Shown: positions 483 through 20,033, numbered from the stretch's first letter. The stretch: 50,013 nucleotides of DNA from an uncultured archaeon (GCA_964508365.1 CAZDTP010000025.1:1-50013), one strand, 5' to 3'. The notes: a model not told the origin generated them from the sequence alone. Program-made: numbers and translations.

Positions 483-1691
483 ATGAAAATTCCTAGGTTT
501 GGAAAAGATTTTTTACTTTTAGCGCTTCGCATAAACAAAATTGATAAAGGTTATGTTGATTTTTATGTTGGTCCAAAAAAAATATGCAAAATTGTCAACA
601 AAGAGTCAATAAAGTCACCAAACAAACTGCTAGGTGATTGCATAACTTTGGAAACAAAATTGTTTAATCAAGGTTATGATAAAAAACGTGAACAATACTT
701 AGAAAAAATGTTGGTATCGATGAAGACTTCAATCGAAATTTTGAATGGAGTCAAAATCCCTTTCAAAGAGCAGTTTTTAGGGTTATATGATGTGAATTTG
801 GGACCTGTCAACGAATCTGAATTAACTGACTTAAAAGAAGAGTTTAACGAGGCTTACGGAAGATCAGGGAGTCTAAAAGAAGGGATGAATGGTATAAGAA
901 TTCGACGAAAAGTTCCTCAGAATAGAGTTCTTACAATGTTTAAAAAAGCATTGAGCATTACAGAAGAACGAACCAAAGAACTATTTACGGATCTCATACC
1001 AAAAAAAGAGAAAATTTTTATCAAGTTAGTGAATAATACCAATAGCGATGATTTGAAATGGCCTTATTACGAGTGGTATTTAGGTAATTTTCGCTCTCGA
1101 TTAGAGATCAATCCATCTTATAACATGTATTGGAGTGCTTTCTTGTCTGCTGCCGCTCACGAGGGGTATCCTGGACACCACACGGAATTTTCTGTCAAAG
1201 AACAGAAGTTGTATCGTGAGTTAAATCAATTTGAACATTCAATATTAGTACTTAAATCACCAAAGCTCATTATTAGCGAAGGGATAGCAAATATCGCTGC
1301 TAATGTGCTCTTCTCTTATCGAGATCACGCAGAAATTGAATTGCATAATTTTTGTCCAGACTCGTCAAAAGAAGATTCTCATGAAATGTTAGCAATGCAA
1401 TACAAAGCAAAAAGAAAACAATCGCTTTTATGGTATAATCTTGCTTATCACGCGCTTGTAGACAAGTGGAGCGAAGAAAGGTTAATTCGATACGCAAATA
1501 ATTATGAAATCTTTAACCAAAAAGACATAAAAAATTTACTAAAATTAATTTCTGACCCTACCTATTCAACAACTGTTTTTTCGTATAATCTTGGTCGTAA
1601 TCTCATAAAAAACAAATATGGTGAATTTCCTTCTGTAAAAAACTTTCGAAATCTGCTCGTAAACCCGATTTTACCTTCAGATTTACAGTAA
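483..1691 (+). CDS. DUF885-like zincin metallopeptidase, copy 1 (likely start ATG 483; ORF track starts at GTG 471)
   Basis: AAHEGYPGHH and downstream SEGIAN motifs match the DUF885 HExxPGH / EGxA pattern; paralogous to 7930-9126 and 18552-19763; no signal peptide visible. Confidence 0.75.
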   Translation: MKIPRFGKDFLLLALRINKIDKGYVDFYVGPKKICKIVNKESIKSPNKLLGDCITLETKLFNQGYDKKREQYLEKMLVSMKTSIEILNGVKIPFKEQFLGLYDVNLGPVNESELTDLKEEFNEAYGRSGSLKEGMNGIRIRRKVPQNRVLTMFKKALSITEERTKELFTDLIPKKEKIFIKLVNNTNSDDLKWPYYEWYLGNFRSRLEINPSYNMYWSAFLSAAAHEGYPGHHTEFSVKEQKLYRELNQFEHSILVLKSPKLIISEGIANIAANVLFSYRDHAEIELHNFCPDSSKEDSHEMLAMQYKAKRKQSLLWYNLAYHALVDKWSEERLIRYANNYEIFNQKDIKNLLKLISDPTYSTTVFSYNLGRNLIKNKYGEFPSVKNFRNLLVNPILPSDLQ

Positions 1692-1842
1692 AGCTAATTT
1701 TCTTCCATGTACTGTTTTTTATCAGTAAAAATTTCCAATTTAACAGAATATTTTTATAGTTCTTTATGTTAATTTATCAATTTTATAAAACAAATAGAGA
1801 ATTAGTCATTCAATTTAAATCACAATAATTTTAATTTTTGTC

Positions 1843-1854
1843 GAAGTTTAAATA
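1843..1854 (+). promoter_or_regulatory. TATA-like box upstream of nonapeptide ORF 1
   Basis: GAAGTTTAAATA, identical to 19841-19852 upstream of nonapeptide ORF 4. Confidence 0.5.
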
Positions 1855-1960
1855 AATTTCATCAGATAATAAAATAGGTTTAAAAGCGTCTCTAAGCAAA
1901 TTCGAATTTAAGAGAATAACGTGCTTATTGCATTTTATTTAACTAATGAAGTGAGAAAAA

Positions 1961-1990
1961 ATGCCTGGTCAATCAAATGCTATACCGTAA
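1961..1990 (+). CDS. Nonapeptide micro-ORF 1, MPGQSNAIP
   Basis: GTGAGAAAAA-ATG CCT GGT CAA TCA AAT GCT ATA CCG TAA; same length and consensus as three other copies, each downstream of a DUF885-like gene. Confidence 0.75.
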   Translation: MPGQSNAIP

Positions 1991-1993
1991 ACG

Positions 1994-2035
1994 GATGTGT
2001 TGTATTAGAACATCATGTATTTTCCTTTTTTTTTT
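1994..2035 (+). terminator. Weak hairpin plus U-tract after nonapeptide 1
   Basis: GATGT...ACATC (1994-2014) followed by a T run at about 2026-2035. Confidence 0.4.
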
Positions 2036-2447
2036 ACCTATATTATCGGTATTCCGATAAGTATCCACTGTCGGGATTGAAGAATGATCTTAAAGTTTCT
2101 AAGATGAAATAATAGGGCAAGAATAAGGATTAGGAATCTTTTTTATTTGATGTAATCATTTTTTGAATTATTAGCGAGGATCTCCTTACTAATATTTGGA
2201 CGAGTTGCTATAGTTATTAGACATTCTCCTGTACCTCTCTGCAGTAGAGCGATGTCTTCTAAATAACTCGTTAATTTTGACTTTCGGGTTAAGCCTTGAG
2301 GGGAAAAATTCTGAGCATCTTTGATTATAGTGATACGGTGTAATATAAAAATTAAATTAATGAATTTTGAATTCAATTGATAATATTCATCAGTATTATT
2401 GGACTCTGTATTTTTTTAAATATAGTTAATCTAATTTAAGTATTAAC

Positions 2448-3656
2448 TTGAGATTATCTGAAACAATACACATAAATAAATCTGACCAACTTTCTAAATT
2501 GTGTCATTTAGCTAAGAATTTACATAATATTGCTAATTGGTATGTAAGACAAGATTTTCTTAAATTAAATAATTTTCTCAATTACTACGATCTGGATTAT
2601 ATCTTAAAAGATAAACAAGTATATAGAAAATTACCCTCCCAGACTTCGCAACAGATTCTAAAGCTAGTTGATAGAAATTGGAGATCGTATTTTAGAGCAT
2701 TGAAGGAATATAGAGCGAAACCAATGAAATTTAAGAAAAAGCCAAGAATTCCACATTATAAAAAGAAGAATGGAGAATATATCGTTATTTTTACAAACCA
2801 GCAATGCAGAATTAAAGAGGGGTATTTATATTTTCCAAAAAAAGTTAATCTCAAACTGTTAAAAACAAGAATAAAGGAAAAAATAAAAGAAGTAAGAATT
2901 TTACCATTAGGAATAAAATATAAAATAGAAATTGTCTATGAAAAAGAAGAGCAGGATTTAGGACTAAATAAAAATAAGATACTGTCAATTGATTTAGGGT
3001 TGAATAACCTTATAGCTGCTGTAAATAATATTGGAGTTGACCCATTTATTATTAAAGGTAAGGTGATAAAATCCATAAATCAATATTACAACAAGCAACT
3101 AGCACATTTCAGAAGCATAGAAAATAAGAAAGGTAATTTTCAAGACACTAAGAGAATTCAAAAACTACATTTAATCAGAAACAATAAAATAAACACCATA
3201 TTTCACCGAATTTCCAAGAATGTAATCAAGTATTGCATTCTAAATAACATAGGAACAATTGTAATGGGTTATAACAATGGATGGAAACAGAAGATAAATA
3301 TCGGAAAAAAGAATAATCAGAACTTTGTTCAAACCCCCTTATTGAAATTGGTAAAACAAATAGAATATAAAGCTCAATTAAAAGGAATTGGCTTCTTAAC
3401 CATTGATGAAGCCTATACTTCTAAGTGTAGTTTTTTGGATAAAGAATCCATTGAAAAACATGAAATATATTTAGGAAAGAGAATTAAAAGAGGGTTGTTT
3501 AGAACATCAAAAGGATTAAAAATCAATGCCGACATAAATGGAGCATATAATATCATGAAAAAAGCATTCCCAAACGCCATTTCGGTTGATGGGATAGAGG
3601 TATTCGGACTAATGCCACAAATAATCCAACAAAACATCGTTGATAATATTATTTGA
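2448..3656 (+). mobile_element. tnpB: IS200/IS605-type TnpB RNA-guided endonuclease, solo (no recognisable tnpA)
   Basis: RuvC-I LSIDLGLNN, IVMGYNNGWKQ, DEAYTSKCS, RuvC-III INADINGAYNI; N-terminal SQTSQQIL helix typical of TnpB. Confidence 0.92.
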
Positions 3657-3860
3657 AATAAAATGAGAACAGTTTAACTCTTTTTAGTAGTCTCAAAGTT
3701 TCTATGATGAAATGTTTTAATGAAACTAGACATAGGAATTATGAATATTTGTTGTGTGGTGGGATTATTTTTCGAAAACTTTTTTAGTTTTATGACTTAG
3801 AGATCATTATATAATTAATAATAATAACTAAGTAAAATATCGAAAAAAAGTGATTTTAAT

Positions 3861-5462
3861 ATGGCACAGTTATCCGGAGTACCTATCCTAATTTTAAAAG
3901 AAGGTGCAGAAAGAAAACAAGGAAAGGATGCCCAAAGAAATAATATAGCTGCAGCTAAAGCGGTAGCAGAAGCCGTAAGAACCACTCTAGGCCCAAAAGG
4001 AATGGACAAAATGCTCGTTGATTCACTAGGAGATGTTACAATTACAAACGATGGAGCAACGATTCTTGATACAATTGATGTCGAACATCCCGCCGCAAAA
4101 ATGATTGTAGAGGTTGCCAAAACGCAAGATGATAAAGTTGGAGATGGAACAACCACAAGCGTAATCATCGCTGGTGAATTATTAAATCTTGCTGAAGAAC
4201 TAATGGAACAAGGTGTACACCCCTCAATTATTTTCAGAGGTTATCGAAAAGCTTTAGTAAAATCTAAGCAAATTTTGCAAGATTTAGCAATAAAAATTGA
4301 TAGTAATGACACTCAAACCCTAATAAAAGTAGCAGAGACCTCAATGAATAGCAAATTGATTGTTGGTGTTAAAAATCATTTTGCTGATATCGCAGTTAGA
4401 GCTGTAAGTCAAGTTAAAGAGGAAAGAGGCGGAAATATATTAATAGATTTAGATCAAATTCAAATTATCAAAAAAGAAGGAAAAAGCTTACTAGATACAA
4501 ATTTGATCGAGGGGATCATTGTAGATAAAGAAATCGTACATCCTATGATGCCAAAATCTCTTAGAAACGCAAAAATTGCGTTAGTCAGTTCTTCTCTCGA
4601 GGTGGAAAAAACGGAGTTTGATGCTGAAATTAGAATACAAACACCTGATCAAATAAATAAATTCCTCGAAGAAGAATCTAATATGTTAAAGTCTCGGGTA
4701 AATAAACTTAAGGATGTGGGTGCAAATGTTGTTTTTTGTCAGAAAGGCATTGACGATAAAGCTCAAAACTTTCTCGCTCAAGAAAACATTATCACCATCC
4801 GTAGAGTGAAACGTTCTGATATGGAAAAACTTGCTCGAGCTACAAATGCAAAAATAATAAACAACATATTTGAAGTTACAAGTGAGGATTTAGGAAAGGC
4901 CGGGAAAGTAGAAGAAAAGAAAATTGGCGATGACAATATGATTTTCGTTTCAGAATGTACCAATCCTAAAGCAGTTAGTATTTTAATAAGAGCAGGCATT
5001 GAACATGTAGTCGATGAGGCAGAAAGAATGCTTCATGATGCATTATCTGTAGTAAGGGCAGCGATAGAAAACCCATATATTTTACCAGGGGGAGGTGCTT
5101 CTGAAATCGAGCTCGCTAAGCGATTGAGGGTTTATGCTCAATCAATTGGGGGAAGAGAACAATTAGCAATTGAAGTTTATGCTAACGCTTTAGAAATTAT
5201 ACCTAAAACTTTGGTTGAAAATGCAGGTTATAATCCTGTTGATTTGTTACTAGAATTACGCTCAAAACACGAATCAGAATCTGGAAATGCGTATGGAATA
5301 AATATGCAATTAGGAAAACCTGATAATATGGAAAATCTGGGTATTATCGAGCCGTTGATGATATTGTCTCAAGCTATTCAATCAGCTACCGAAGTAGCTT
5401 CAATGATTTTAAAAATAGACGATGTAATTGCTGCTTCCGGACTCTCAAAGGGCCCTGAATAA
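3861..5462 (+). CDS. ths: Thermosome (group II chaperonin) subunit
   Basis: [35 protein letters not shown] motifs. Confidence 0.97.
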
Positions 5463-5506
5463 GAATCAAATTTCTTTTTCTTTTTTTTAAAATTTAAAAA
5501 TATATT

Positions 5507-5968
5507 CTAAAAATCATTTAATCTTTTAAATTCAGCTCCCCAAGAGAATTTAGAGAGAATTAGGTCAGCGTGTTCATTAAAACCTGTAATGTATAATGCA
5601 GCTGCCAACGCCTCAGCTGAACTTAATTTTTCCCATTTACCAAAATTTACAGGATTTGAAGCTAGTAATGAAGGTAATTTCCTGCTATTAGGTAAATTGA
5701 GATTCTTATGAGTAAGAATTTTATTCCAAGAACAATCTACAACCATAAGGCCATAGTTTTCAATAATGGTTCGTTCGTTAATATTTATGATTTTTTTAGA
5801 TAGAGGATTAAGAATAACAGAATTACGGTTTTTTCCTTTTATGTCAGAAACAATTTCTAAAATACCTAATTTCATTAATTTTAGAGCTGTGCATTTTTTT
5901 CTGTCACACTCATTAAGGTGAAGACACACTAATTTTGGAATGGGTTCCTTTGAACTCTGTTTAATCAT
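5507..5968 (-). CDS. tsr3: 16S rRNA aminocarboxypropyltransferase Tsr3
   Basis: ECDRKKCTALKL, VVDCSW, LLASNPVNFGK, LSSAEALAAAL, FSWG motifs. Confidence 0.93.
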   Translation of the reverse strand: MIKQSSKEPIPKLVCLHLNECDRKKCTALKLMKLGILEIVSDIKGKNRNSVILNPLSKKIININERTIIENYGLMVVDCSWNKILTHKNLNLPNSRKLPSLLASNPVNFGKWEKLSSAEALAAALYITGFNEHADLILSKFSWGAEFKRLNDF

Positions 5969-6959
5969 ACTTGAAACTTGTAAGTACGTTAACTGACTTA
6001 ATAAAATTATCAGTAATTTTTTCTGAACCTATTATTTTCATTATAGAGAATATTATGTTCCTTGATTCACACATAATTGGAATACCTCCGTATGAAAGCG
6101 TAAAAAGCGCAACAAATGAAATTTCTTCAGCATTGAGACTTCCTTCTGCCTCTGAAAATTTCAATCTTCCGGAAGGACTAGTTATTATACCAAAGAAATT
6201 CTCAGGATCTTGACCAGATATTGCAATGTAACATAATAAATCACCGATCGAGCTTCCTCCAGACTCCTCTTTCATTTTCTGAAAGGCAACATTAGCACTC
6301 GCAGAAAATGCCTCGACAGAAATCTGTAAATTCTGACCACTAACTTCTCTCGCATCTAATGTTAAGCCTGTTGGACTCACTAAACTATATCTTATAAAAA
6401 TAGGATTTTGCATCGAATCCAGAACGTAACTTATTGCGGGTAAGAGGTTAGTCTGATCAAATTTTTCTGGTGCATAAGATATGAAAGGCACTTCAGATCC
6501 CATACCAAATAGATAAACGGCACTCCGTACTTTATTTGAAAAATCTTCAAAATCTTTCTCAGTTTCACTATTATTACCAAAAAACTCTCCAAGTTTTTGT
6601 TTTATATAATACATAGAACTTGCTAGATTATCAGCATCTAAAGGCCATTCTTTCCGATAATCGTGAACTATAGTTAGAAGAGTATCATTAATCCTAATTG
6701 TTATTAAACAAACTTTGTCAAAAAATGTAAATGAAATAACTTGATCTTTAATATTTAGGTCTTCCCAACTTTCTTCACTTGCTGAGAACGCTGCCGAAGC
6801 TAAACTTGTAATTTGGTTAGGATTAATCTCAATCTCACTTTTTCTTCCAATTTTTGCTATAGATAGTCCATTTAGATCACACAGTATCACCAAAATTGTA
6901 CCTTGAGACGCTCTTAAGATTGACGTCAGGTACTTTATTAAAGAATCTCTCACACTCAT
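5961..6959 (-). CDS. Tandem roadblock/LC7 (LAMTOR-like) domain protein
   Basis: Two repeats of the roadblock pattern: LCDLNGLSI...SLASAAFSASE and LVSPTGLTL...EAFSASANVAF. Confidence 0.7.
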   Translation of the reverse strand: MSVRDSLIKYLTSILRASQGTILVILCDLNGLSIAKIGRKSEIEINPNQITSLASAAFSASEESWEDLNIKDQVISFTFFDKVCLITIRINDTLLTIVHDYRKEWPLDADNLASSMYYIKQKLGEFFGNNSETEKDFEDFSNKVRSAVYLFGMGSEVPFISYAPEKFDQTNLLPAISYVLDSMQNPIFIRYSLVSPTGLTLDAREVSGQNLQISVEAFSASANVAFQKMKEESGGSSIGDLLCYIAISGQDPENFFGIITSPSGRLKFSEAEGSLNAEEISFVALFTLSYGGIPIMCESRNIIFSIMKIIGSEKITDNFIKSVNVLTSFKYD

Positions 6960-7041
6960 AAGAAAACCATATCCTTTCTATCTTTACTATAAATTCTCTC
7001 TGCTTTAATAACAATAATATTAATTCTTAAATATTATCTAC

Positions 7042-7087
7042 TTGACATACTTTTGACATACTTTTGACATACTTTTGACATACTTTT
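7042..7087. repeat. Perfect 11-bp tandem repeat (TTGACATACTT)x4
   Basis: Read directly: ttgacatactt four times plus tt. Confidence 0.97.
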
Positions 7088-7185
7088 AATGAAAAGATAA
7101 TAGATGTCTATTATAAAAAGAAAGAAGTTCAGTTTTAAAAATTTAAGTTAATAACGAGATTGATAATAAAAAAAAAAAATATATT

Positions 7186-7227
7186 GTGAGCTTATATTTC
7201 TTTGTTAAACCTATAAGCAACACCAAA
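7186..7227 (-). terminator. Conserved hairpin after nonapeptide 2, followed by a long U-tract
   Basis: Minus strand TTTGGTGTTGCTTATA...TATAAGCTCAC then a long T run; same flanks as 19983-20033. Confidence 0.7.
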
Positions 7228-7257
7228 TTATGGTACTATTCCGTCAGTATGAGGCAT
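7228..7257 (-). CDS. Nonapeptide micro-ORF 2, MPHTDGIVP
   Basis: Minus strand GTGAGAATA-ATG CCT CAT ACT GAC GGA ATA GTA CCA TAA. Confidence 0.75.
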   Translation of the reverse strand: MPHTDGIVP

Positions 7258-7342
7258 TATTCTCACTTAAATTAATCTTGAAAGTCTAAAGCAATGTAAA
7301 TTTTAACACAATTGCTTTAATCAATTCAATTATTCAAAAAAT

Positions 7343-7354
7343 TATTTAAACTAC
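7343..7354 (-). promoter_or_regulatory. TATA-like box upstream of nonapeptide ORF 2
   Basis: Minus strand GTAGTTTAAATA, 11/12 identical to the boxes of copies 1 and 4. Confidence 0.5.
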
Positions 7355-7369
7355 TAAAAAAACTAGGTT

Positions 7370-7753
7370 TTAAAATAGATCGGACGGAAGAATTGGTTTT
7401 GTAAGCAATTCTTAAAATTTTTTAACCGGAGGAAATTCACCATACCTATCCATTATTAACTTACTTCCTGTATAATATGAGAAGGGTGTGGTTGATAATA
7501 CGGGATCATCTAAAATTTTAATTCGATTTTTAATATCCTTTTCACTATATATTTCGAAAGTATCTGCATATCGAAATAATTTATCTTCGCTCCATTTCTC
7601 AACATGGGCGTAATATCCAAGATTAAACATAATATAACTTACTCTTCTTCTCACACGATTTTGATATGTAAGCTTATTAAGAGAATCTTCTTGTAGTTTA
7701 TTAGGGCAAAATTCATTTAAACCAATTTCTGCTTGTTCTCGATAATTAAAAAT
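7370..7753 (-). pseudogene. 3' remnant of a fourth DUF885-like gene
   Basis: Reads FNYREQAEIGLNEFCP...EFPPVKKF*ELLTKPILPSDLF*, matching the C-termini of the intact copies; N-terminal two thirds including HExxPGH are absent; in-frame TAA at 7412-7414. Confidence 0.88.
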
Positions 7754-7811
7754 TTAATTTAATATCAGGAATTTTACACATTAGAAAAAAAAAAGAAAGT
7801 ATCAAAAATCA

Positions 7812-7841
7812 TTAAGGAACAATGTTACCATCAACAGGCAT
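7812..7841 (-). CDS. Nonapeptide micro-ORF 3, MPVDGNIVP
   Basis: Minus strand GTGAGGGATTTTTTT-ATG CCT GTT GAT GGT AAC ATT GTT CCT TAA, followed by a U-tract. Confidence 0.72.
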   Translation of the reverse strand: MPVDGNIVP

Positions 7842-7893
7842 AAAAAAATCCCTCACTAAATTGATTTGAATTATAATAAATACTAGAAGTGAT

Positions 7894-7905
7894 TATTTAA
7901 AATCC
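7894..7905 (-). promoter_or_regulatory. TATA-like box upstream of nonapeptide ORF 3
   Basis: Minus strand GGATTTTAAATA. Confidence 0.4.
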
Positions 7906-7929
7906 ACAAAAAAAATTATTTTCGAATAA

Positions 7930-9126
7930 TTAGACTAGATCTGAAGATATAACTGGATTGGATAACAAATATTTAAAATCATCTAAATTTGGGGGGAAAC
8001 CAAATTTTTTAGAAATTAAAGCTCTCCCATAATTATAGGTATAATGTACAATTCGATATTTTGGATTTAAGATAAAATCAATATCACTCTCTAAATTTGC
8101 TTTAGGAGTAAAGCCAAATGTCATACCATAATCAATTAATTCTTTCTTAGATAAACCTTCTATATATGTTAGGTTAGTAAGATGAATTTTAAATTTCTTT
8201 AATTTATACTTTAATTCAAATTGTTTAATTAAAGTCTCGACTGAATCTTCTTCTATAGGATTTGGACAAAATTCTTTTATTTCAATCCTAAATTTCTCAA
8301 TTGGAGAGAAAAGAATATACGGAGCGGTTTCAGCGATTCCTTCAATAATAACGCCTACGGGTGTATTCATTAGGACTAGACAATGCTCATTCCAATTTAA
8401 TTTATCATGTAGAAGTTTATTTTTTACAGCAAGTTCAGTATGATGCCCAGGATAACCTTCATGAGCCGCAAGAGGAAAGAAAGTAGTCCAATAATATGGT
8501 TGAGATGGATTTATTTCAATAAGCGAATGAAAATTTCCCTGATATTTATTGTACATCGCCCAGCCAACTCTTTCTTTGGTAAACTGAACATGATATGACT
8601 CTGTTTCAGGGAGTAAATCAGGAAATAATTCTCTTGTGCGACTACGTGTTATTTCAAGGGCTTTTTTAAAATATGGAATTACATGATTCTGAGGAATATA
8701 TCTACGTTCTTTATATGATTCCATTTTCTCCGCTAGAGTTCCTACTCCTAGATAAGCCTCATTAAATTGTTCTTGAAGATCATAGAATTCATCATCCTTA
8801 AATAAATCGGGTTTAATCCCAAGTATGGTTTCAATTTGTTCAAAAAAATCTATATTTTCACCATCAAGCACTTTTAAAAAGGTTTCCATAGCTCCTAAAA
8901 TAGCTCTGAGATAATTTTGTCGTGCAGGATCATCAATCGCTTCAGATAAGTCTTTTTGAAGACTTTTTACCGTTTTAATTAATTGTTTTGGAGATTTAAT
9001 CGGTTCACTTTCAACCATCTTTTTAAATTTTGGAGAACCGTAATAGGCATCAATATAACCATCAAATAGTTTATTAATTCTTAATGCAAGAATTATATAT
9101 TCTTTTATGAATGGATCAATTGTCAT
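7930..9126 (-). CDS. DUF885-like zincin metallopeptidase, copy 2 (likely start MTIDP at 9126; the ORF-track extension to 9354 is probably not coding)
   Basis: LAAHEGYPGHHTE and IIEGIAE motifs; N-terminus aligns with the other copies from MTIDPFIKEYIILALRINK. Confidence 0.78.
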   Translation of the reverse strand: MTIDPFIKEYIILALRINKLFDGYIDAYYGSPKFKKMVESEPIKSPKQLIKTVKSLQKDLSEAIDDPARQNYLRAILGAMETFLKVLDGENIDFFEQIETILGIKPDLFKDDEFYDLQEQFNEAYLGVGTLAEKMESYKERRYIPQNHVIPYFKKALEITRSRTRELFPDLLPETESYHVQFTKERVGWAMYNKYQGNFHSLIEINPSQPYYWTTFFPLAAHEGYPGHHTELAVKNKLLHDKLNWNEHCLVLMNTPVGVIIEGIAETAPYILFSPIEKFRIEIKEFCPNPIEEDSVETLIKQFELKYKLKKFKIHLTNLTYIEGLSKKELIDYGMTFGFTPKANLESDIDFILNPKYRIVHYTYNYGRALISKKFGFPPNLDDFKYLLSNPVISSDLV

Positions 9127-9457: not shown

Positions 9458-9542
9458 GCGGGAATTGCCAAGTCTGGTCTACGGCGCTGGACTTAGAATC
9501 CAGTCTCAGAGGAGTTCGGGGGTTCAAATCCCTCTTCCCGCA
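9458..9542 (+). tRNA. tRNA-Leu(TAG), intronless, long variable arm
   Basis: Acceptor GCGGGAA/TTCCCGC, anticodon arm CTGGA-CTTAGAA-TCCAG, T-loop TTCAAAT. Confidence 0.97.
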
Positions 9543-9703: not shown

Positions 9704-9805
9704 GCTCTCGTAGTGTAGTCCGGCCAAACTTTCCAAAAAAGAAAGGGCTTGGCATGCTAGGCTTTCACCCTGGTGACCCGGGTTCGAATCCCGGCGAGAG
9801 CACCA
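9704..9805 (+). tRNA. tRNA-Glu(TTC) with a 24-nt D-loop intron at 21/22 (9728-9751); CCA encoded
   Basis: Anticodon loop CTTTCAC; BHB helix GGCC/GGCT, bulges AAA and TGG, outer helix CTTTC/GAAAG; removal restores D-stem GTGT/GCAT. Confidence 0.93.
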
Positions 9806-9846
9806 CCAATAATTGGTGTGAAGCATTGGAAAATTAATATAACCGC

Positions 9847-11907: not shown

Positions 11908-11983
11908 CGACCCCTTAAAAGTCAGAAGTTCATTTGCTTTTTTTTAAATCTCGTAATTTCAAATAATAATAAAATAGGATTCA

Positions 11984-12427: not shown

Positions 12428-12447
12428 AAAAATACGATAATTAAAGG

Positions 12448-13395
12448 TTAAAAGAAATTAGCTTCGTTCTCTTTTAGAAAATCATAAATTTCTCGATTGT
12501 TTGGCATTCCAGTTCTCGCACCTAATTTTTGAATTTTTAATGAAGCTGCTGCATTGGCAAACATACAGGATTTTTCTAAATCCCAACCTTTAATCCAATA
12601 AGCTAAAGAAAAAGCACCATTGAAAGTATCACCTGCACCTGTTGTATCTACAATATTTTCTATATGGTAAGCAGGTATCTTTTTTTGATAATTATTTGTT
12701 GTTAATAAAGCACCATTTTTTCCTAATGTGATAATTACTACAGGTACCCCTTTTTTCACTAAAATTTTCGCTGCTTTTTGAGGATTATCGCTATTTGTAA
12801 TTAACTTTGCCCCTTCTTTGTTCGGAAGTAAAACATCCGCCTTTAGTAGAATATTTTTTAATTTATCCCAACCCCTTAATGCAATTTGAGACTCTAAATC
12901 GATACTTACTTTTACTTCATTATTCTTTGCTATTTCAAGTGCTTTCTCAGTTAATTCCTGATGAATAATAGTAGTATGCAATAGTTTAGAATCTACTATG
13001 GAGGATTCTTGTAATTCTTCAATATCCAATCTTGTTGTTTGCATATGTGGTGATTGAATAATAGATTTCTCACCTTTAGCCACAAATATAAAGTTAACTG
13101 GCGTTTTTTTATTGAGTTTTCTAACAATATAACTTGTATCTACGTTTTCTTTTAAAAAATCATCGATTAACAAATCAGCATACTGGTCATCTCCAACGGC
13201 TCCAATAAATCCACAACAACCTTCCAATCTAGCTAGAGCCACTAAATAATTAGCAGTGACTCCACCAGGAAAATAATTTTCACTTAAAGCATCTATTTTT
13301 TCATCTGGCTTTGGAAAATGGGGCACTTCTGCAACCCAATCTAAAACTACTTCCCCTAATCCAACGATATTTACTTGTTTCATAGTTCTTTTCAA
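12448..13395 (-). CDS. PfkB/ribokinase-family carbohydrate kinase
   Basis: PGGVTAN, GAVGDDQY, DTTGAGDTFNG motifs. Confidence 0.93.
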   Translation of the reverse strand: MKRTMKQVNIVGLGEVVLDWVAEVPHFPKPDEKIDALSENYFPGGVTANYLVALARLEGCCGFIGAVGDDQYADLLIDDFLKENVDTSYIVRKLNKKTPVNFIFVAKGEKSIIQSPHMQTTRLDIEELQESSIVDSKLLHTTIIHQELTEKALEIAKNNEVKVSIDLESQIALRGWDKLKNILLKADVLLPNKEGAKLITNSDNPQKAAKILVKKGVPVVIITLGKNGALLTTNNYQKKIPAYHIENIVDTTGAGDTFNGAFSLAYWIKGWDLEKSCMFANAAASLKIQKLGARTGMPNNREIYDFLKENEANFF

Positions 13396-13477
13396 TACAT
13401 TTAACTTTTTTATCTAATTATAATTTAATGAACTAGAAACAAAATAGATGTAGATGGTTTTAATTATTATTATGTAT

Positions 13478-15202
13478 TTAAGTCATAATTTCTTTTATTC
13501 GATTCTCTAAATCATCATCAATATTAATATCTTGAAAATTTGAAGCCACTATTTCATAAGAATCACTGTAATCATTAAATTTTACTCGGCCTTTAATCAT
13601 AATATCCCTACCAATGATATCTGAAGAAAACTTTTTCAACAATTTTTCATAATCGGGAGTGTCTTTAACCTTTACAATTATCTCTGCTTTTTCTCCAACT
13701 AATTTCTCTGCTGCTTCTCCAATAAATGTCGCTCTGATTTTTCCACTCTCATCTTCAAGAAAGTGACTAGTAATCATTGTAAGTTTTTTATCACCTGTTT
13801 TATCACATGTACAATTATCTATTTTTCTTCTACATTCAGAACAAGCTTCGTAAAATCTGATATTTTTTAATTCGTTAGATATTACACCTTTTATTTCAAA
13901 AAATCCAGAGCTTTGGATAGTACTAATATCAGTAAAATTTCCTGAAAAATTATTTTGTTTGAATTTTGACGATGGTTCAGATACTTTAATATTTTCAATC
14001 TCTAAATTTATTTTTTCTATACTCGAGTCAATAGCAATGGTTACTTCGTTTTTCTGTGAATAATTACTATATCTAAGTTCAACATTTTTCAGTAAAACTC
14101 CGTCTCCGTTCTTCAGGGACATTGAAAGTTCATCTGCTTTCTCCCGCCAAGCTGTAACTCTTATAGAATCAGTATTATCACTTACATTAAACCCTAATAA
14201 TGAAATTTCTTCACCAGATTTTAAAGTTATTCTCCTTAAATCATCTATTGCAGAAATTATTCCTTGAAAAGATATATATCCTTTTTGATTTTGAAGTGTA
14301 TCAATGCTATCAATTTTTTGTACGTCAAATTTTACTTTCTTGTCTTTTTTCGTAATTTGTGTCCAAGAAGTTGCGTGTAAATCTATTTGACCTTCAGTAA
14401 AATTACTTTTTCTAGGATTTAAGTTACTGAGAGAAATGAAATCACCAATTTCAATGTTTTCTATTTTATCGATATCCTCATTCCAAAAACTTATTCTAAT
14501 TTTACCTGATGAATCCCGGGCTAATATCGAGCTTACCTTTCCATTTTGGCCGTCCTTCCGAATGAAGTCGCGTACCGGGAAACGATTCATCACTTTTCCT
14601 TCAATTGTTATAGATCCTGATTTTTCGTCAATCTCATTTATTAATTTAAATTCCTCCTTTATTTTGGCGTATTTCTTATAATCAACATCCTCAGGGGCCA
14701 AAACAATTTTACTAAATCTTCCAATATGAATCTCTATTCCCCCATATCTTCCTTGTTTTGCATTTCCATTCAAGATTTTAACGATTTCATTTTTCTCAAA
14801 TCGTTCATCTTTAAAAACATTTACTTGGTCATCCCATAATACAATTCGAATATCCCCCGTATTATCGTGTAATTGAAAAGATCCCACATATCCGACTTCC
14901 CCATTGCTTTTATTAAAACTATTGAGATTGAAAATATCCTTAATTCTACCAACTAATACAATATTTTTCATGTTCAAGGTAATGTCAGAAATGTTTAATT
15001 CGATTTCATTCAAAAGTTCTTGATTTTCACCTGAAACTTCTACACCTAGTTCTTTAGCTATTACAAACAATGCTCCTTCATCTGAAATTAAACCCTTTAA
15101 TTCCTCTTTTTTCTCTTCCATTAAACTTTGTATTTCCTTTTTAGAAAGTCCAGTATCTTCAATGATTTTATTAAGGTACGCTTCAGTCTTCATTTCTCTC
15201 AC
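13478..15202 (-). CDS. rpa: Replication protein A large subunit (multi-OB fold with Zn finger)
   Basis: Repeated OB motifs (LHDNTGDIRIVLW, RDSSGKIRISFW, VSDNTDSIRVTAW, EDESGKIRATF) and CSEC...CTC. Confidence 0.88.
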   Translation of the reverse strand: MREMKTEAYLNKIIEDTGLSKKEIQSLMEEKKEELKGLISDEGALFVIAKELGVEVSGENQELLNEIELNISDITLNMKNIVLVGRIKDIFNLNSFNKSNGEVGYVGSFQLHDNTGDIRIVLWDDQVNVFKDERFEKNEIVKILNGNAKQGRYGGIEIHIGRFSKIVLAPEDVDYKKYAKIKEEFKLINEIDEKSGSITIEGKVMNRFPVRDFIRKDGQNGKVSSILARDSSGKIRISFWNEDIDKIENIEIGDFISLSNLNPRKSNFTEGQIDLHATSWTQITKKDKKVKFDVQKIDSIDTLQNQKGYISFQGIISAIDDLRRITLKSGEEISLLGFNVSDNTDSIRVTAWREKADELSMSLKNGDGVLLKNVELRYSNYSQKNEVTIAIDSSIEKINLEIENIKVSEPSSKFKQNNFSGNFTDISTIQSSGFFEIKGVISNELKNIRFYEACSECRRKIDNCTCDKTGDKKLTMITSHFLEDESGKIRATFIGEAAEKLVGEKAEIIVKVKDTPDYEKLLKKFSSDIIGRDIMIKGRVKFNDYSDSYEIVASNFQDINIDDDLENRIKEIMT

Positions 15203-15366
15203 TATTTTGTTTAGTTTTCTTTATTCAAAGATAAAATTAGATTTTATACTTTAAAAATGAAATTATTTAATACTTAATTAATCATTATTTTTAAAAAAAA
15301 AGAGTATCTCATATTGGTAATTTGTTATTGATAATTTAAATCAAATGTTATATTTTTGTTGTAATT

Positions 15367-16110
15367 ATGAATAGATTTAGGATCATTCCAGTTATTGATA
15401 TATTATGTTCTCAAGCTGTGCACGCAATCAAAGGAGAACGAGAAAACTATAAGCCCTTGAAATCAGTTTTAATTAATGATAGCAATCCAATACAAGTTGC
15501 ATCAAAATTAAAAAATAAGTATTTATTCAATGAATTTTACATTGCCGATTTGGATGCTATACTTCAAAGAAAGCCTAATATCACAATCCTTTCAAAAATA
15601 CTCGATATTCCTGGGATTGAGATCATAATTGACCCCGGAATAAAAACTAAAAAGAATATAGAAAAATATTTTAGACATAATCTAAAATCGTTAGTTTTAG
15701 GATTAGAAACCTTAAGAGATCTAAAAGTTATTACAGAGTGTTTAAAACTTTTTGATACTAATAAGATTATTGTAAGTATCGATATGTATAACGAAGATAT
15801 TCTAACTAATATCACGGAAATTAGGAATCAAGATATACTTGAAATTGTTTCTAAAATTGAAGATTTAGGTGTAAATAATATCCTTTTACTTGATCTCTTT
15901 AAAGTTGGACAGAAAATGGGAGGAATTCCCGCGCTTTATTTAAAGATAAGAGAAGTGTTTAATGGTGAAATACTAGTTGGAGGTGGAATAAAAGACATTC
16001 AAGATATTAAGGAATATAAAAGTAATAACTTCTCAGGGGTTCTGATTGGGACAGCTTTACACGATGGGTCTATAAAAATCGAAGAACTAAGAAGCTTTCT
16101 CAAAATTTAA
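15367..16110 (+). CDS. HisA/HisF-like TIM-barrel protein (archaeal C1-cofactor-associated HisA-related family)
   Basis: IIPVIDI...AVHAIKGERENY, YIADLDAI, ILVGGGIKD, GVLIGTALH. Confidence 0.8.
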   Translation: MNRFRIIPVIDILCSQAVHAIKGERENYKPLKSVLINDSNPIQVASKLKNKYLFNEFYIADLDAILQRKPNITILSKILDIPGIEIIIDPGIKTKKNIEKYFRHNLKSLVLGLETLRDLKVITECLKLFDTNKIIVSIDMYNEDILTNITEIRNQDILEIVSKIEDLGVNNILLLDLFKVGQKMGGIPALYLKIREVFNGEILVGGGIKDIQDIKEYKSNNFSGVLIGTALHDGSIKIEELRSFLKI

Positions 16111-16637
16111 TCAATAAAAATAACACCCGAGCTTGAAACATTTAAAGATTTCTTACATACGGGGCAAGCGTGCTTCATTCTAACCCAATCGGTTATGTGA
16201 TCCTTATGAGCTTTCGCTTCGCAAATTGGACAGCCAGCCACTTCGTCAAAAATCTCGATATTCTTTCCACACACCGCACACTTGGTTTTTGATGCCGTAG
16301 AAATCCGTATTACTTCTTTTTTTATATCGAGCACAATATTATCTGTGTTTTCCGCTGTAGGATTAATTTGTTTCAATTCGGTTCGGGTATCAACACAAAA
16401 GATAGTTCCCTCACTATCATCTTTACGATTCCCTATCCAAACCACTTTACCCTTAAAATAACTAGATCCCTCGTTTTCTAACGAGAGGTTTAACCTTCGA
16501 TCTTCCATCACAAATGTTTGAATTACTTTAGTATATTTCAACCCATCTAAATTTGAGGATATTTGTTTAATCACTTCAAATGGTTCTCTGAATACTTCAT
16601 TTGTTATATCGACTTTTGTGATTTCTTTCGGAGACAT
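16107..16637 (-). CDS. RING-like zinc-finger protein (putative E3 ligase)
   Basis: C-terminal CAVC-x12-CPIC-x4-HKDH-ITDW-x6-CPVC: eight ligands plus the RING Trp. Confidence 0.65.
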   Translation of the reverse strand: MSPKEITKVDITNEVFREPFEVIKQISSNLDGLKYTKVIQTFVMEDRRLNLSLENEGSSYFKGKVVWIGNRKDDSEGTIFCVDTRTELKQINPTAENTDNIVLDIKKEVIRISTASKTKCAVCGKNIEIFDEVAGCPICEAKAHKDHITDWVRMKHACPVCKKSLNVSSSGVIFID

Positions 16638-16838
16638 AATAATTCATAATTTTTTTGATATTTAATAATAATTATTTAATTTAAATTTTTATATCATTTT
16701 CTTTCTTTAACATTTTTAATCACATTTTAAATATCCCAAAATAAAAGATAATTTATAGCTTGAAGAATAAAAGATCTAGTATTAGAAGAATCTAATTAGA
16801 TATTTGGGTTAATTATAATTACTTCATATAATAAGTGA

Positions 16839-17579
16839 TTGGTTATGCAAAAAAGTATCAAATTGCTTGTAAGCCCTAAATCATTAGAAGAAGCCAAAGT
16901 TGTGGTTCGACAAAAAGATGTAGATTATATAGATTGTAAGAATCCCATTGAAGGTTCTTTAGGAGCTAATTTTCCGTGGATTATAAAGAAAATGAAGAGT
17001 CTAATACCTCCAAATAGCTCTCAATTATTAAGTGCAGCCATAGGGGACTTCCCAAATTTACCTGGATCAGCTTCTTTGGCCGCTTTAGGCGCCGCAGTAT
17101 CCGGAGCTGATATTATTAAAATAGGTCTTAAAGAATCAACTACAGAGGATGATTGTATATATTTAATGAAAAATGTTGTGAAAGCTGTAAAAACCTATAA
17201 TGAAAATATAAAAATTGTAGTAGCCGGGTATGCAGACAGAATAAGGATGGTTTCATCACCGGATTTTTTATTACTCCCAAATATTGCAGCCAAATCTGGG
17301 GCCAATATAGTGATGCTTGATACATTCATCAAAGATGGAAAAGGTTTATTTGATTTTTTAAGCGTTGAGCAATTAAAGCTTTTTAAAAAGAAAGCAAAAA
17401 AACTCAATCTAGAAGTCGCTTTAGCGGGGTATTTAATGATGGAATCCCTCCCAATGGTAAAAAAGATAATGCCAGATATAATTGGCGTAAGGAGTATAGT
17501 ATGTGAAGGATATGACAGGAATAATGGAATGATTAAAGGACATCTCATAGAAGAGTTAAAAGCTGAGTTATATACTTAA
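16839..17579 (+). CDS. mfnB: (5-formylfuran-3-yl)methyl phosphate synthase (methanofuran biosynthesis, DUF556)
   Basis: LLVSP..EEA, IDCKNPIEGSLGANFP, SAAIGD, IKIGL, MLDT..KDGK, GVRS..C. Confidence 0.9.
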   Translation: MVMQKSIKLLVSPKSLEEAKVVVRQKDVDYIDCKNPIEGSLGANFPWIIKKMKSLIPPNSSQLLSAAIGDFPNLPGSASLAALGAAVSGADIIKIGLKESTTEDDCIYLMKNVVKAVKTYNENIKIVVAGYADRIRMVSSPDFLLLPNIAAKSGANIVMLDTFIKDGKGLFDFLSVEQLKLFKKKAKKLNLEVALAGYLMMESLPMVKKIMPDIIGVRSIVCEGYDRNNGMIKGHLIEELKAELYT

Positions 17580-17672
17580 AGCTTTTAAAAATAGATACAA
17601 TGAGTAATTAAATACTCATATTTTTAGTTCATTTTAATAATATTAATTTGGTTACATTGTTGATTTGTTATT

Positions 17673-18506
17673 ATGTACGAAAAGGAATTAGGAATAATTG
17701 GTGTTGGTAAAATTGGTTCTGCTCTCTTAAAAAGACTAATTTCTACTAATACGATTGATAAGAACAAAATTATAATTTTTGATGTAGATAAAGAGAAATT
17801 GCACAATCTTTCAAAAGACTTGGATGTAGATTGTGCTAAAAGCAATACCGATTTAGTTAATTCAACTAAACATGTCTTAATTGCTGTTATCCCTCAAGTA
17901 ATGGATATTGTTTTGAGAGAAATAGAAACGGCAATATCTACACAGCATGTAATAATATCTATTGCAGCTGGAGTTTCTTTTACTCATATAACTAAAATAA
18001 TTAGCAAACCCGTATCATTAATACGAATAATGACTAACACTCCAGCTCTTGTAGGTGCAGCTGCTACAGCGATAGCTCGTAATGAAAATGTTAAAGAATA
18101 CCAACTAGAGTTCGTTAAAAAAATCTTTAGTTCTGTAGGGATGGTAGTAGAATTAGAAGAAAGACATTTAGACGCGGTAACTGGTTTATCCGGAAGTGGT
18201 CCTGCTTATATATTTATAATTATTGAAGCTTTAGCCGATGGGGGTGTAAAAATGGGATTACCTAGGGACATTGCCCTAAAACTAGCTGCTCAGACCGCTT
18301 TAGGTTCTGCAAAACTTCTATTGGAAACAAACATACACCCCGCAGCACTGAAAGATATGGTAGCAACTCCAGGAGGCACTACTATTACTGCTATACACGA
18401 ACTTGAATCTGCAAAGATAAGAGCCACCTTAATTGGAGCAGTAGAAGCTGCTACCATAAAATCCAAATCATTAAATTCAGCAAAAACAAATAATGCTCAT
18501 AATTAG
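17673..18506 (+). CDS. proC: Pyrroline-5-carboxylate reductase
   Basis: GVGKIG, ISIAAG, RIMTNTP, VTGLSGSGPAY, VATPGGTT. Confidence 0.96.
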   Translation: MYEKELGIIGVGKIGSALLKRLISTNTIDKNKIIIFDVDKEKLHNLSKDLDVDCAKSNTDLVNSTKHVLIAVIPQVMDIVLREIETAISTQHVIISIAAGVSFTHITKIISKPVSLIRIMTNTPALVGAAATAIARNENVKEYQLEFVKKIFSSVGMVVELEERHLDAVTGLSGSGPAYIFIIIEALADGGVKMGLPRDIALKLAAQTALGSAKLLLETNIHPAALKDMVATPGGTTITAIHELESAKIRATLIGAVEAATIKSKSLNSAKTNNAHN

Positions 18507-18551
18507 TTAAATAAAACTTTTTATACAAGATTTTCTTGTTATCTGTTAGAA

Positions 18552-19763
18552 ATGGCAAAAATTTCCAAGTTTGGAGAAGATTTTTTACTACTGGCACTCA
18601 GAATTGACAAACATATTAAAGGTTATGTCGATTTTTATTTTGGTCCGGAAAAACACCGACAAATTGTAGATAATGAACCTCTAACAGTTCCAAACAGATT
18701 GTTAAATGACTCCAACAATTTGATAAAACAATTGGGAGCTCAAGGTTTTGACAAAAAACGCGAACGGTATATCGAAAAGTTATTGGTAGCTATGAAAACC
18801 TCAATAGAAATTTTAAAAGGTTCTGATATATCTATTAAGGATCGATTTAAAAAACTTTATGATGTAGATTTACAACCCGCTAAAGAAGCTGAGTTAGATA
18901 ATTTAAAGGAAGAGTTTGAGGACGCCTACAGAGGGCATGGAAGCTTAGAAGAACGTATGAATAGATTAAGAATTAGTCGTAAAGTTCCTGAATCTAAGGT
19001 TTATAATTTCTTTAAGAAAGCACTCCAAATTACAGAAATACGGACAAAGGAATTATTCGTTGATTTATTGCCAAATAATGAAAAAATAATTATTGATATA
19101 GTAAAAAAGGATGAATCAAAAGAGAAAGTAAAATGGAGGTTCTATAATTGGTATTTGGGTAAATATGTTAGCCGGATTGAGGTTAATCCTAATTATCAAA
19201 TGTATTGGACTGTTATTTTACAATCTACATCTCATGAAACATATCCAGGACATCATACTGAGTTTGTATTAAAGGAAAAGAGACTTTATCGAGAGTTAAA
19301 CCAATTTGAGCACTCTATTTTAATTCTCCATTCGCCAAAATTAGTAATTTCAGAGGGAATTGCCAATAAAGCAATTTCTGTACTCTTTTCAAATCAAGAA
19401 GTAGCAGAAATTGGATTAAATGAATTTTGTTCAGATCCTTTAAAAGAAGTGTCTCTTGAAGAGTTGGAGCAACAAAATATAGTGAAAGCTAAAATTCCTC
19501 TTTTTTGGTATAATTTTGTATATCATGCCCTTGTTGATAAGTATAATAAGAAAGAATTAATGAGATATGGAAAAAGTTATGAATTTTTTAGCGATGAAGA
19601 TTTGATCACCGGAATAGAAAGAATGTCAAATCCCGCATATTCAAATAACTCTTTTATGTACTACCTTGGAAACAATATTTTACAAAAATACGGAGATGTA
19701 CCTTCATTAAAAGAATTTAAAAATTTACTGGTTAATCCAATTTTGCCATCTGATTTTATATAA
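18552..19763 (+). CDS. DUF885-like zincin metallopeptidase, copy 3
   Basis: SHETYPGHHTE and ISEGIAN motifs; close paralogue of 483-1691. Confidence 0.78.
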   Translation: MAKISKFGEDFLLLALRIDKHIKGYVDFYFGPEKHRQIVDNEPLTVPNRLLNDSNNLIKQLGAQGFDKKRERYIEKLLVAMKTSIEILKGSDISIKDRFKKLYDVDLQPAKEAELDNLKEEFEDAYRGHGSLEERMNRLRISRKVPESKVYNFFKKALQITEIRTKELFVDLLPNNEKIIIDIVKKDESKEKVKWRFYNWYLGKYVSRIEVNPNYQMYWTVILQSTSHETYPGHHTEFVLKEKRLYRELNQFEHSILILHSPKLVISEGIANKAISVLFSNQEVAEIGLNEFCSDPLKEVSLEELEQQNIVKAKIPLFWYNFVYHALVDKYNKKELMRYGKSYEFFSDEDLITGIERMSNPAYSNNSFMYYLGNNILQKYGDVPSLKEFKNLLVNPILPSDFI

Positions 19764-19840
19764 CAAAATTCTTGTAGCCATTTTAAATTTAGATGGATAA
19801 AATTTAATTTTCTGAAAAAAATAATTCACTAAATTTTATT

Positions 19841-19852
19841 GAAGTTTAAATA
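19841..19852 (+). promoter_or_regulatory. TATA-like box upstream of nonapeptide ORF 4
   Basis: GAAGTTTAAATA, identical to 1843-1854. Confidence 0.5.
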
Positions 19853-19952
19853 TACCATTTGGAAATGGAATATATAAGAGAAAAAAGCTATTCAGATTCA
19901 AAATTATAAGAATAGAATAAAAAAATTTAAATTCAAAAATAAGGTGAACAAA

Positions 19953-19982
19953 ATGCCTGGTCAAGCAGGAGCAGTACCTTAA
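19953..19982 (+). CDS. Nonapeptide micro-ORF 4, MPGQAGAVP
   Basis: AGGTGA (19942-19947) lies 5 nt before ATG CCT GGT CAA GCA GGA GCA GTA CCT TAA. Confidence 0.78.
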   Translation: MPGQAGAVP

Positions 19983-20033
19983 TTTGGTGCTGCTTATAAG
20001 AGCAATTTACTCTAATGCTCTTTATAAGCTCAC
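19983..20033 (+). terminator. Conserved hairpin after nonapeptide 4, followed by a U-rich tract
   Basis: GCTTATAAGAGCA...TGCTCTTTATAAGC stem within TTTGGTG...CTCAC flanks. Confidence 0.72.

Follow-up and report, generated by a model that had tools for sequence, protein, structure and literature searches.

Genes of 9–11 codons are invisible to annotation, and very few genes of this kind have been shown to be functional (mccA and the streptococcal SIP/LCP genes); we know of no functional 9–11-codon gene in archaea. Here we describe what appears to be an undescribed two-gene module, accessory to one family of Lokiarchaeia, in which such a micro-gene sits beside the gene for an HExxPGHH zinc-peptidase-like protein that is DUF885-like (hereafter, zincin). 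The analysis starts from a window of 50,013 nucleotides (nt), contig C25 of the uncultured archaeon genome GCA_964508365.1 (G000; assembly of 4.07 Mb, 31.8% G+C). Among the closest described systems, mccA, the microcin C gene, has seven codons and a hairpin that yields a short stable transcript; it is accompanied by a major facilitator superfamily (MFS) exporter and a peptidase-type immunity enzyme, and the MccA peptide has a C-terminal Asn and depends on the adenylyltransferase MccB. PepF (family M3) is a cytosolic zinc oligopeptidase limiting the lifetime of regulatory peptides. The ligands of angiotensin-converting enzyme (ACE, family M2), M3 and M32 enzymes are peptides of 3–13 residues, many of them ending in Pro (bradykinin, bradykinin-potentiating peptides, IPP), and Pro protects them from general exopeptidases. 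In Firmicutes, leaderless communication peptides (SIP/LCP), which have RopB-type receptors, are encoded by a 24-bp open reading frame (ORF) as peptides of mature length (PMC10518010). According to a passage of PMC5167397 that cites Wilkening 2016, PepO (family M13) degrades short pheromones.

The module resembles the LCP genes in its ultrasmall ORF (27–33 bp here), lack of leader or processing sites, absence from annotation, position beside a partner gene and lineage-specific peptide code. The LCP partner is an RRNPPA transcription factor (TPR plus HTH), whereas here it is a zinc peptidase, with no such receptor among the flanking genes tested; moreover, LCPs are hydrophobic and occur in Firmicutes, whereas these peptides are polar or acidic, Pro-capped and archaeal. 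With PepO and PepF the zincin would share the part of a cytosolic zinc oligopeptidase limiting the lifetime of 5–10-residue peptides, but those are housekeeping enzymes of other families and are not encoded beside peptide genes. Like mccA, the micro-genes are among the shortest genes and have a hairpin directly after them; unlike MccA, the peptides end in Pro (a residue required by our screens), no ThiF-like gene was found among the flanking ORFs examined, and an MFS gene occurs only beside a second class of micro-genes (class 2). The zincin belongs to the same overall fold class as ACE, M3 and M32 (Z-scores of 12–15), at about 10% identity and with HExxPGHH in place of HExxH, and the ligands of those enzymes are not encoded beside them. 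The solved DUF885 structures (Protein Data Bank (PDB) entries 3iuk, 3o0y and 3u24) match it with Z-scores of 19–23 over approximately 355 of 402 residues and share HExxPGHH; the zincin is about 150 residues shorter, and it looks cytosolic whereas two of the three entries are titled putative lipoproteins. Finally, arrest micro-ORFs (TnaC, MAGDIS, Erm/Cat leaders) likewise have conserved residues at slow steps (Pro-Gly, Pro-stop), but these and other attenuators lie 5′ of the regulated gene in one transcript, whereas zincin-linked units lie 3′ of the zincin or convergent to it and have their own terminator; the attenuator layout is matched only by the MFS-linked class 2. Literature searches yielded nothing on this system or on Asgard micro-peptides and, within the library searched, no published function for DUF885.

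In the window, four micro-ORFs of nine codons follow three zincin genes (pA, pB and pC) and one zincin remnant (Table 1), each on the same strand as the gene upstream; the gaps are 269, ~118, 88 and 189 nt for micro-ORFs 1–4 (behind pA, the remnant, pB and pC, respectively). The pattern ATGCCN-N16-RTN-CCN-TAA has exactly four matches in the 50 kb, the four micro-ORFs themselves, and none in 100 dinucleotide-preserving shuffles. The last Pro codon is CCG, CCA, CCT and CCT in micro-ORFs 1–4, and the stop codon is TAA in all four. These ORFs, with their coordinates, peptides, Pro codons and stops, had been picked out in a sequence-only reading of the window and were recovered exactly as described there, as was their same-strand downstream position. 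The whole genome holds six zincin loci (five paralogues and the remnant), and a micro-ORF stands beside the 3′ end of each. Outside the window, the paralogue on contig C34 is followed by MPGQTDATP 203 nt downstream on the same strand, and that on contig C45 by MPHSPNTVP, 39 nt past the stop codon on the opposite strand, and thus convergent. Only ten ORFs in the 4.07-Mb genome combine a Shine–Dalgarno motif with an 8–12-residue MP...P product; six are those at the six zincin loci, two are class-2 micro-genes and two are random-looking.

Of the 160 genomes of the class, 36 were hit by a profile of the five paralogues; all 36 belong to two genera of a single family, no genome has more than ten matches, and the occurrence is patchy (16 of 41 genomes of the genus). 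About 90 zincin loci were collected and the 700 nt past each gene were scanned on both strands; a quick maximum-likelihood tree of 75 full-length zincins gave four groups. In three of these (clades I, II and pB), which span 36 genomes in two genera, 57 of 60 loci have between one and three micro-genes. Clade I has a same-strand 9-codon ORF (MPG-x5-P) at 43 of 45 loci, 91–608 nt downstream (median 267), and at one further locus the ORF either starts with TTG or is extended by MVL. Clade II has a convergent ORF of 9–11 codons at 11 of 13 loci, mostly 39–102 nt past the zincin stop and mostly encoding MPH...[IV]P (for example, MPHGPGGTVIP, MPIEGGGTTVP and MPHAGDAVP). The two loci of the pB clade encode MPVDGNIVP and the variant MPSGNIIPE. 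The peptide type tracks the zincin clade. Ten loci hold two or three micro-ORFs, with a tandem period of ~205–220 nt, and among Promethearchaeota loci from a species-level genome collection the ORF is present at two of three, the third stopping at a contig edge. Loci were sampled by the neighbouring zincin and not by the ORF, and the ORF is still intact at 57 of 60. The claim that every DUF885-like locus is followed by a micro-gene thus holds for this genome and for the three clades, and fails beyond them: no micro-ORF occurs at the 14 loci of clade III, where a radical SAM or ferredoxin-type gene lies directly 3′, and no conserved micro-ORF was found at 20 loci of distant Asgard homologues (the family is present in 125 of 399 genomes of the phylum) or at 56 bacterial loci (22–29% identity). 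At these bacterial loci, six random-looking P-ending ORFs without a common motif lie downstream and none upstream. Within clade III, the radical SAM gene (motif CQHGCIYCYA) is found ~30–70 nt 3′ of the zincin at L113 and L150–L156, and the ferredoxin-type gene at L104, L105 and L148.

The pattern ATGCCNGG-N16-CCNTAA (MPG-x5-P-TAA) has 99 matches in the 160 genomes. Eighty-five of them fall within the 13 genomes carrying clade-I zincins; the other 14 occur singly in 14 genomes, several with internal stops. Control patterns gave 11 matches (one base shorter, out of frame) and ~11 matches (reversed). The genetic link between zincin and micro-gene is firm, and more than 70 micro-genes with coding-type conservation were identified by comparison alone.

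Several features show that the micro-ORFs have been maintained as coding sequence. Within the pC orthologue group (five genomes; MPGQAGAVP in three, MPGQAGAIP and MPGQAGGIP), pairwise differences within the micro-ORF comprise 26 synonymous and 10 non-synonymous changes, a ratio of 0.16, and the ORF is more conserved than its flanks; the peptide of micro-gene 4, MPGQAGAVP, recurs in three genomes besides this one, where the ORF differs only synonymously. Among recently duplicated paralogues the whole-ORF ratio is 0.8–1.0, and codons 4–8 diverge by 0.34–0.42, compared with 0.14–0.28 for the 30 nt on either side. The peptide is thus held constant in the one orthologue group examined and diverges among paralogues. 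The five middle codons differ at 19–42% of positions between copies, though the ORF is intact at 57 of 60 loci. An internal stop was seen in just one class-I-type copy (G108:C174:1053-1082, ATGCCTGGTCAAACTTGA...), probably a decayed micro-gene. No longer overlapping ORF is conserved across the micro-ORF units. A second ORF of 27 residues that starts in the hairpin after copies 2 and 4 was rejected: its ATG is missing from copies in which the stem has covaried (GATATT/AATATC), so that hairpin conservation accounts for it.

The micro-ORF consensus is M-P-G-[QE]-x-[GD]-[IAT]-[VI]-P, with Gly3 almost invariant in clade I. In the consensus MP-x5-[IV]-P proposed from the window, [IV] at position 8 proved to be only a preference, T, G, N, L and other residues also being found. 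As the C-terminal Pro was demanded by the screens, its invariance is not independently shown, and the pB-clade variant ends in ...IIPE. Positions 4–8 contain 0.7% Lys and 2.0% Leu, compared with 8.2% and 9.9% in the proteome, and almost no Phe or Tyr; they are enriched in Gly, Gln, Thr, Ala, Glu and Asp, and are also rich in Ile and Val. The composition of the peptides is strongly non-random and under selection, with P values that are overstated because the micro-ORF copies are kin.

The pC module shows how the pair behaves as an insertion. The module is bordered by proC, which ends 45 nt before pC starts, and by a GHMP-kinase family gene just past micro-gene 4. A full-length proC followed by a clade-I zincin was found in at least six further genomes and at one separately fetched locus, whereas four zincin-less genomes of the same genus have proC immediately next to the convergent kinase gene of ~320 residues. 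The order proC, zincin plus micro-gene, kinase is shared by at least seven genomes. Comparison of the occupied and empty sites identifies zincin plus micro-gene as an accessory unit of ~1.55 kb that is a presence/absence variant; zincin and micro-gene are gained or lost together at this site. Two paralogous zincin copies carry only a 45–61-residue fragment of proC, which marks them as segmental duplicates of the pC locus. No other paralogue, bacterial or distant Asgard locus fetched has proC nearby. A link to proline metabolism through proC was considered and rejected, as proC abuts the kinase gene in zincin-less genomes and is read as the insertion site. The genes flanking zincin modules, where tested, are housekeeping genes or have no Pfam match; no exporter or importer was found beside zincin modules, and PADLOC gave no matches. 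Zincin-linked units are followed by terminators, often with no co-oriented gene downstream. The convergent arrangement in clade II counts against purely cis regulation and favours a connection between the gene products themselves.

The zincin is, on modelling, a DUF885-fold protein with an intact predicted metal motif. The AlphaFold2 (AF2) model of pA has a mean predicted local distance difference test (pLDDT) score of 93.8, and its best structural matches are the DUF885 entries 3iuk (Z-score of 22.9 over 357 residues, root mean square deviation of 4.0), 3u24 (19.7) and 3o0y (19.3), followed by M32 carboxypeptidases (13–15), M3 oligopeptidases, Dcp and ACE/ACE2 (~12) and MATCAP (11.8); M3 oligoendopeptidase F is a structural relative (12–13). 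The label DUF885-like, first given from the sequence, rests on fold and motif, the Pfam score being under threshold: pA reaches 16.2 bits against PF05960, for a gathering cut-off of 32.4, and 16 of 32 family members have E≤0.01 (best 8.3e-6). Sequence searches of the PDB gave nothing beyond noise at E≤1, and NCBIfam gave nothing. Paralogues pA, pB and pC, which are 39–57% identical pairwise, all contain HEGYPGHH, and HE[GAVT]YPGHH is intact in 75 of 75 Asgard sequences. Residues H226, E227, Y229, P230, G231, H232, H233, E251 and E266 are invariant even when bacterial homologues are included. The motif is HExxxxHH and not the HExxH of gluzincins (clan MA), and E251 and E266 are candidate third zinc ligands. 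Judged by eye and with no predictor used, the translations show no N-terminal signal peptide or hydrophobic segment, and the zincin looks cytosolic. Enzymes of the M32/M3/ACE fold class take only short peptides, which fits ligands of 8–10 residues. The C-terminal residues [NK]P[IV]LPSDL are conserved in all clades and in the bacterial-inclusive consensus (for example, 1668–1688 and 19740–19760), and the ...ILP of this tail is similar to the ...[IV][IV]P with which the peptides end. The pB ORF has a 76-codon 5′ extension to 9354 by way of a TTG start; it aligns with no paralogue and is probably spurious and not translated.

Each micro-gene unit is ~200 nt long and comprises an A/T-rich upstream element, a GTGA/GGTGA motif, 9–11 codons, TAA, a hairpin and a T-tract. 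GTGAG or GGTGA, which are complementary to the 3′ end of archaeal 16S rRNA, lie at −6 to −11 of each window micro-ORF, and this Shine–Dalgarno motif and its flanks are conserved across the family. A T-tract is present 3′ of all four window ORFs, preceded by a hairpin at three of them. Across the family, the hairpin starts 3–4 nt past the stop codon and has seven pairs, three of them with compensatory changes; its folding energy is −9.2 kcal/mol, compared with −4.3 for shuffled sequence. Upstream, the 10-mer AGTTTAAATA, within a purine-rich 12-mer, lies 93–120 nt 5′ of four of the six micro-ORFs at the zincin loci of this genome, and the variant ATTTTAAATA lies 61 nt 5′ of a fifth. Over the whole genome the motif shows no enrichment (64 observed, ~79 expected), nor does it associate with the starts of long genes. 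Its presence at five of six micro-ORFs together with this lack of enrichment identifies it as a cassette-specific element, which may act as a promoter. The covariance models of Rfam 15 matched none of the units, whether at gathering score or at E≤1. Two RNA assignments were tried and rejected. A guide or antisense small RNA is not indicated by the variable 18 nt, whose complementarity is 0.680 to its own locus and 0.670 to other loci. For a C/D-box RNA, a post-stop AUGAUGC resembling a C box is confined to one subgroup, with GGUGCUG elsewhere, and no D box is present, as judged by eye.

Table 1. Positions of the zincin modules and bordering genes in the window.
Feature	Position	Strand	Description
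Zincin paralogue pA	483–1691	+	402 residues, clade I, HEGYPGHH motif; AF2 model pLDDT 93.8; DUF885 fold, Z-score 22.9
TATA-like cassette element TTTAAATA within GAAGTTTAAATA	1847–1854	+	114 nt 5′ of micro-ORF 1; putative promoter
Micro-gene 1	1951–1990	+	GTGAG 1951–1955; 9-codon ORF MPGQSNAIP-TAA 1961–1990
3′ hairpin (GATGT/ACATC) and T-tract of micro-gene 1	1993–2036	+	Covariation seen across the family
Micro-gene 2	7168–7266	−	GTGAG 7266–7262; MPHTDGIVP-TAA 7257–7228; long hairpin and T-tract 7224–7168
Zincin pseudogene, 5′-truncated	7376–7759	−	Matches pA residues 278–405; two in-frame TAA stops
Micro-gene 3	7783–7856	−	GTGAGG 7856–7851; MPVDGNIVP-TAA 7841–7812; T-tract
Zincin paralogue pB	7930–9126	−	398 residues from the aligned start
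proC (pyrroline-5-carboxylate reductase)	17673–18506	+	Left border of the pC module insertion site
Zincin paralogue pC	18552–19763	+	403 residues, clade I
Micro-gene 4	19943–19982	+	GGTGA 19943–19947; MPGQAGAVP-TAA 19953–19982
Long 3′ hairpin (GGTGCTGCTTATAAGAGCA...TGCTCTTTATAAGCTCAC) and T-tract of micro-gene 4	19986–20056	+	
GHMP-kinase family gene	20085–21062	−	Right border of the pC module insertion site

The class-2 micro-genes, MPG[CTQN]x[DGNS]xxP, are found without a zincin. Two are in this genome (C8:70226-70255 (−) and C16:3595-3624 (−)) and 13 further loci are in other genomes (the set includes L166–L179). Their flanks are conserved among themselves and unrelated to those of class 1, with TTGAGGTAAGGCTAAA before the ATG and, after the TAA, a CTCCCGC...GCGGGAAAACC hairpin that forms a strong terminator with a T-tract. 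An MFS transporter gene (MFS_1) lies 3′ at 8 of 15 loci, ~190–340 nt past the micro-ORF stop, and a conserved large protein is encoded divergently upstream at six loci; it has 1205 residues at the sole complete locus, no Pfam match, and an AF2 model that is unusable (pLDDT of 49.8).

Elsewhere in the window, a mobile-element gene encoding a TnpB-like protein (OrfB_IS605 and Cas12f1-like TNB domains) occupies 2448–3656 (+), ~460 nt 3′ of micro-gene 1. Two tRNA matches, at 9458–9542 (85 nt) and 9704–9802 (99 nt) on the + strand, exceed standard tRNA length and so may contain introns; they are overlapped by a weak match to YrlA, a Y RNA-like family (E of 0.008, far under the gathering score). The 5′ part of an archaeal large-subunit rRNA (841 positions) lies at 49092–50013 (+) and runs off the window end; no small-subunit rRNA is reported upstream of it within the window. 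Small shares of the region are represented in four metatranscriptome runs.

The first gene of the module encodes a DUF885-fold protein of ~400 residues that looks cytosolic, with an intact HE-x-YPGHH...E site and the two-lobed architecture of the M32, M3 and ACE oligo- and carboxypeptidases, whose closed cleft takes only short peptides; the second, in one to three copies, encodes M-P-[GH]-x(3-5)-[IVT]-P. For the mechanism, we infer the following scheme. Given the established specificity of methionine aminopeptidase, the initiator Met would be cut off to give a small, neutral-to-acidic product of 8–10 residues that begins and ends with Pro, a feature that may confer resistance to general amino- and carboxypeptidases. 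The zincin would bind this peptide in its cleft and cleave it, for turnover or processing, and so would control how much of a regulatory or signalling peptide is present, in the way that PepO and PepF act on pheromones of streptococci and Bacillus, and ACE and neurolysin on bradykinin. We tentatively favour this reading, in which the lifetime or processing of a Pro-capped peptide depends on a dedicated oligopeptidase encoded next door. Several observations weigh against it. One zincin often has several different micro-genes (two or three), micro-gene 2 is intact beside a dead zincin remnant, and ~8 orphan copies lack a zincin, which speaks against strict one-to-one pairing. Class 2 also does without a zincin, so that the peptide format, and not the zincin, is the common denominator. 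Conversely, the zincins of clade III, bacteria and distant Asgard archaea have no micro-gene, which implies a peptide-independent function of the enzyme. A C-terminal Pro would suit an inhibitor equally well, and duplication of whole cassettes would make peptide type track zincin clade without co-evolution. Of the cognate enzyme–peptide pairs suggested by the sequence-only reading, the genetic tie to the zincin thus survives, across 36 genomes, and a strict one-to-one correspondence does not, given the arrays, the dead remnant, the orphans and class 2. Its suggestion of a ribosomally synthesized, post-translationally modified peptide with a maturase found no support: the micro-ORFs have no leader, no modifying enzyme is encoded nearby, and the sole radical SAM neighbour belongs to clade III, which has no micro-ORF. 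A fuller signalling scheme is possible but rather doubtful; in it, the leaderless, Pro-capped peptides of 8–10 residues would be lineage-coded archaeal signals, processed or quenched by the neighbour of ACE/neurolysin fold, with the MFS exporter and the 1205-residue protein exporting or sensing them.

Instead of being a substrate, the peptide could be a tight-binding, non-cleavable competitive inhibitor or regulator of the neighbouring zincin, antitoxin- or zymogen-like, since peptidases of this fold bind Pro-terminated peptides well and handle them poorly. Classical peptide inhibitors of ACE, a fold relative, end in Pro; a complex of ACE with the tripeptide IPP is among the structural matches; and M32 carboxypeptidases do not release a C-terminal Pro. 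The hydrophobic preference at position 8, which the screens did not impose, and the joint gain and loss of the two genes also agree with inhibition. We nonetheless consider it unlikely, because one enzyme faces several different peptides, a peptide gene has outlived its zincin, orphan and MFS-linked micro-genes exist, the peptide-less zincin clades show no sign of needing an inhibitor, and no evidence of enzyme toxicity was found. The peptide might alternatively be functionless once released, the micro-ORF being a translational device or small regulatory RNA that senses aIF5A, tRNA-Pro or ribosome state and, through a slow M-P-G start and Pro-stop end, exerts control over the short transcript or its neighbours by way of their stability or termination. 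Ribosomes are slow to form a Pro-Gly bond and to terminate after Pro, arrest ORFs of 6–9 codons are known (MAGDIS, Erm/Cat leaders and TnaC with its Pro-stop), and the fixed parts of the micro-ORFs are exactly MPG, P and TAA. The layout of class 2, upstream of the MFS gene with a hairpin and T-tract between, is that of an attenuator, and the close spacing of stop codon and hairpin would be in keeping with it, but the zincin-linked units end in terminators, often with no co-oriented gene after them, and those of clade II are convergent to the zincin. The middle residues, moreover, are selected at the amino-acid level in orthologues and are biased in composition (as arrest peptides can also be), and neither the complementarity of the variable segment (0.680 and 0.670, as above) nor Rfam points to an RNA. 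Such a device is improbable on this evidence.

We regard it as equally improbable that the products are intercellular leaderless signals or narrow-spectrum toxins exported by the MFS protein, with the zincin as immunity or quenching enzyme or as receptor and the diversity of paralogues reflecting pherotypes or conflict between strains. The middle codons outpace their flanks among paralogues, one orthologue group being conserved, and the family is patchy, with up to ten zincin matches in one genome and a module that is a presence/absence variant, all of which fits such a role; class 2 lies between the 1205-residue protein and the MFS transporter. Firmicutes have leaderless signals of eight residues encoded by 24-bp ORFs (PMC10518010), and PepO, according to the passage of PMC5167397 noted above, degrades such pheromones. 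The zincin modules themselves have no exporter or importer beside them, however; the peptides are hydrophilic and without export signal, no TPR or HTH receptor was found, and PADLOC gave no matches. Last, the ORFs could be by-products of a conserved terminator or repeat copied with the gene, with no functional link at all. Flanks conserved at the nucleotide level and the duplication of whole cassettes, some with proC fragments, are compatible with this. Frame, length, ATG, CCN and TAA are kept, however, while the interior diverges more than the flanks; orthologues show a synonymous excess and the peptides a biased composition; and one peptide format recurs with two unrelated flank types (classes 1 and 2) and in two orientations. 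The by-product reading is strongly disfavoured, and we consider it very improbable.

The micro-genes are tied to DUF885 and its relatives, which are widespread in bacteria and have no known substrate. Were the ORFs to act as translational sensors, this would still be a type of regulatory device new to archaea. If, as in the reading that we favour, the peptide is a ligand of the zincin, it would represent the first candidate substrate class for DUF885-type proteins and provide a simple test system of one recombinant enzyme and one synthetic octapeptide. Peptide regulation or communication in Asgard archaea would then become testable, which would bear on the syntrophic consortia of the closest relatives of eukaryotes.

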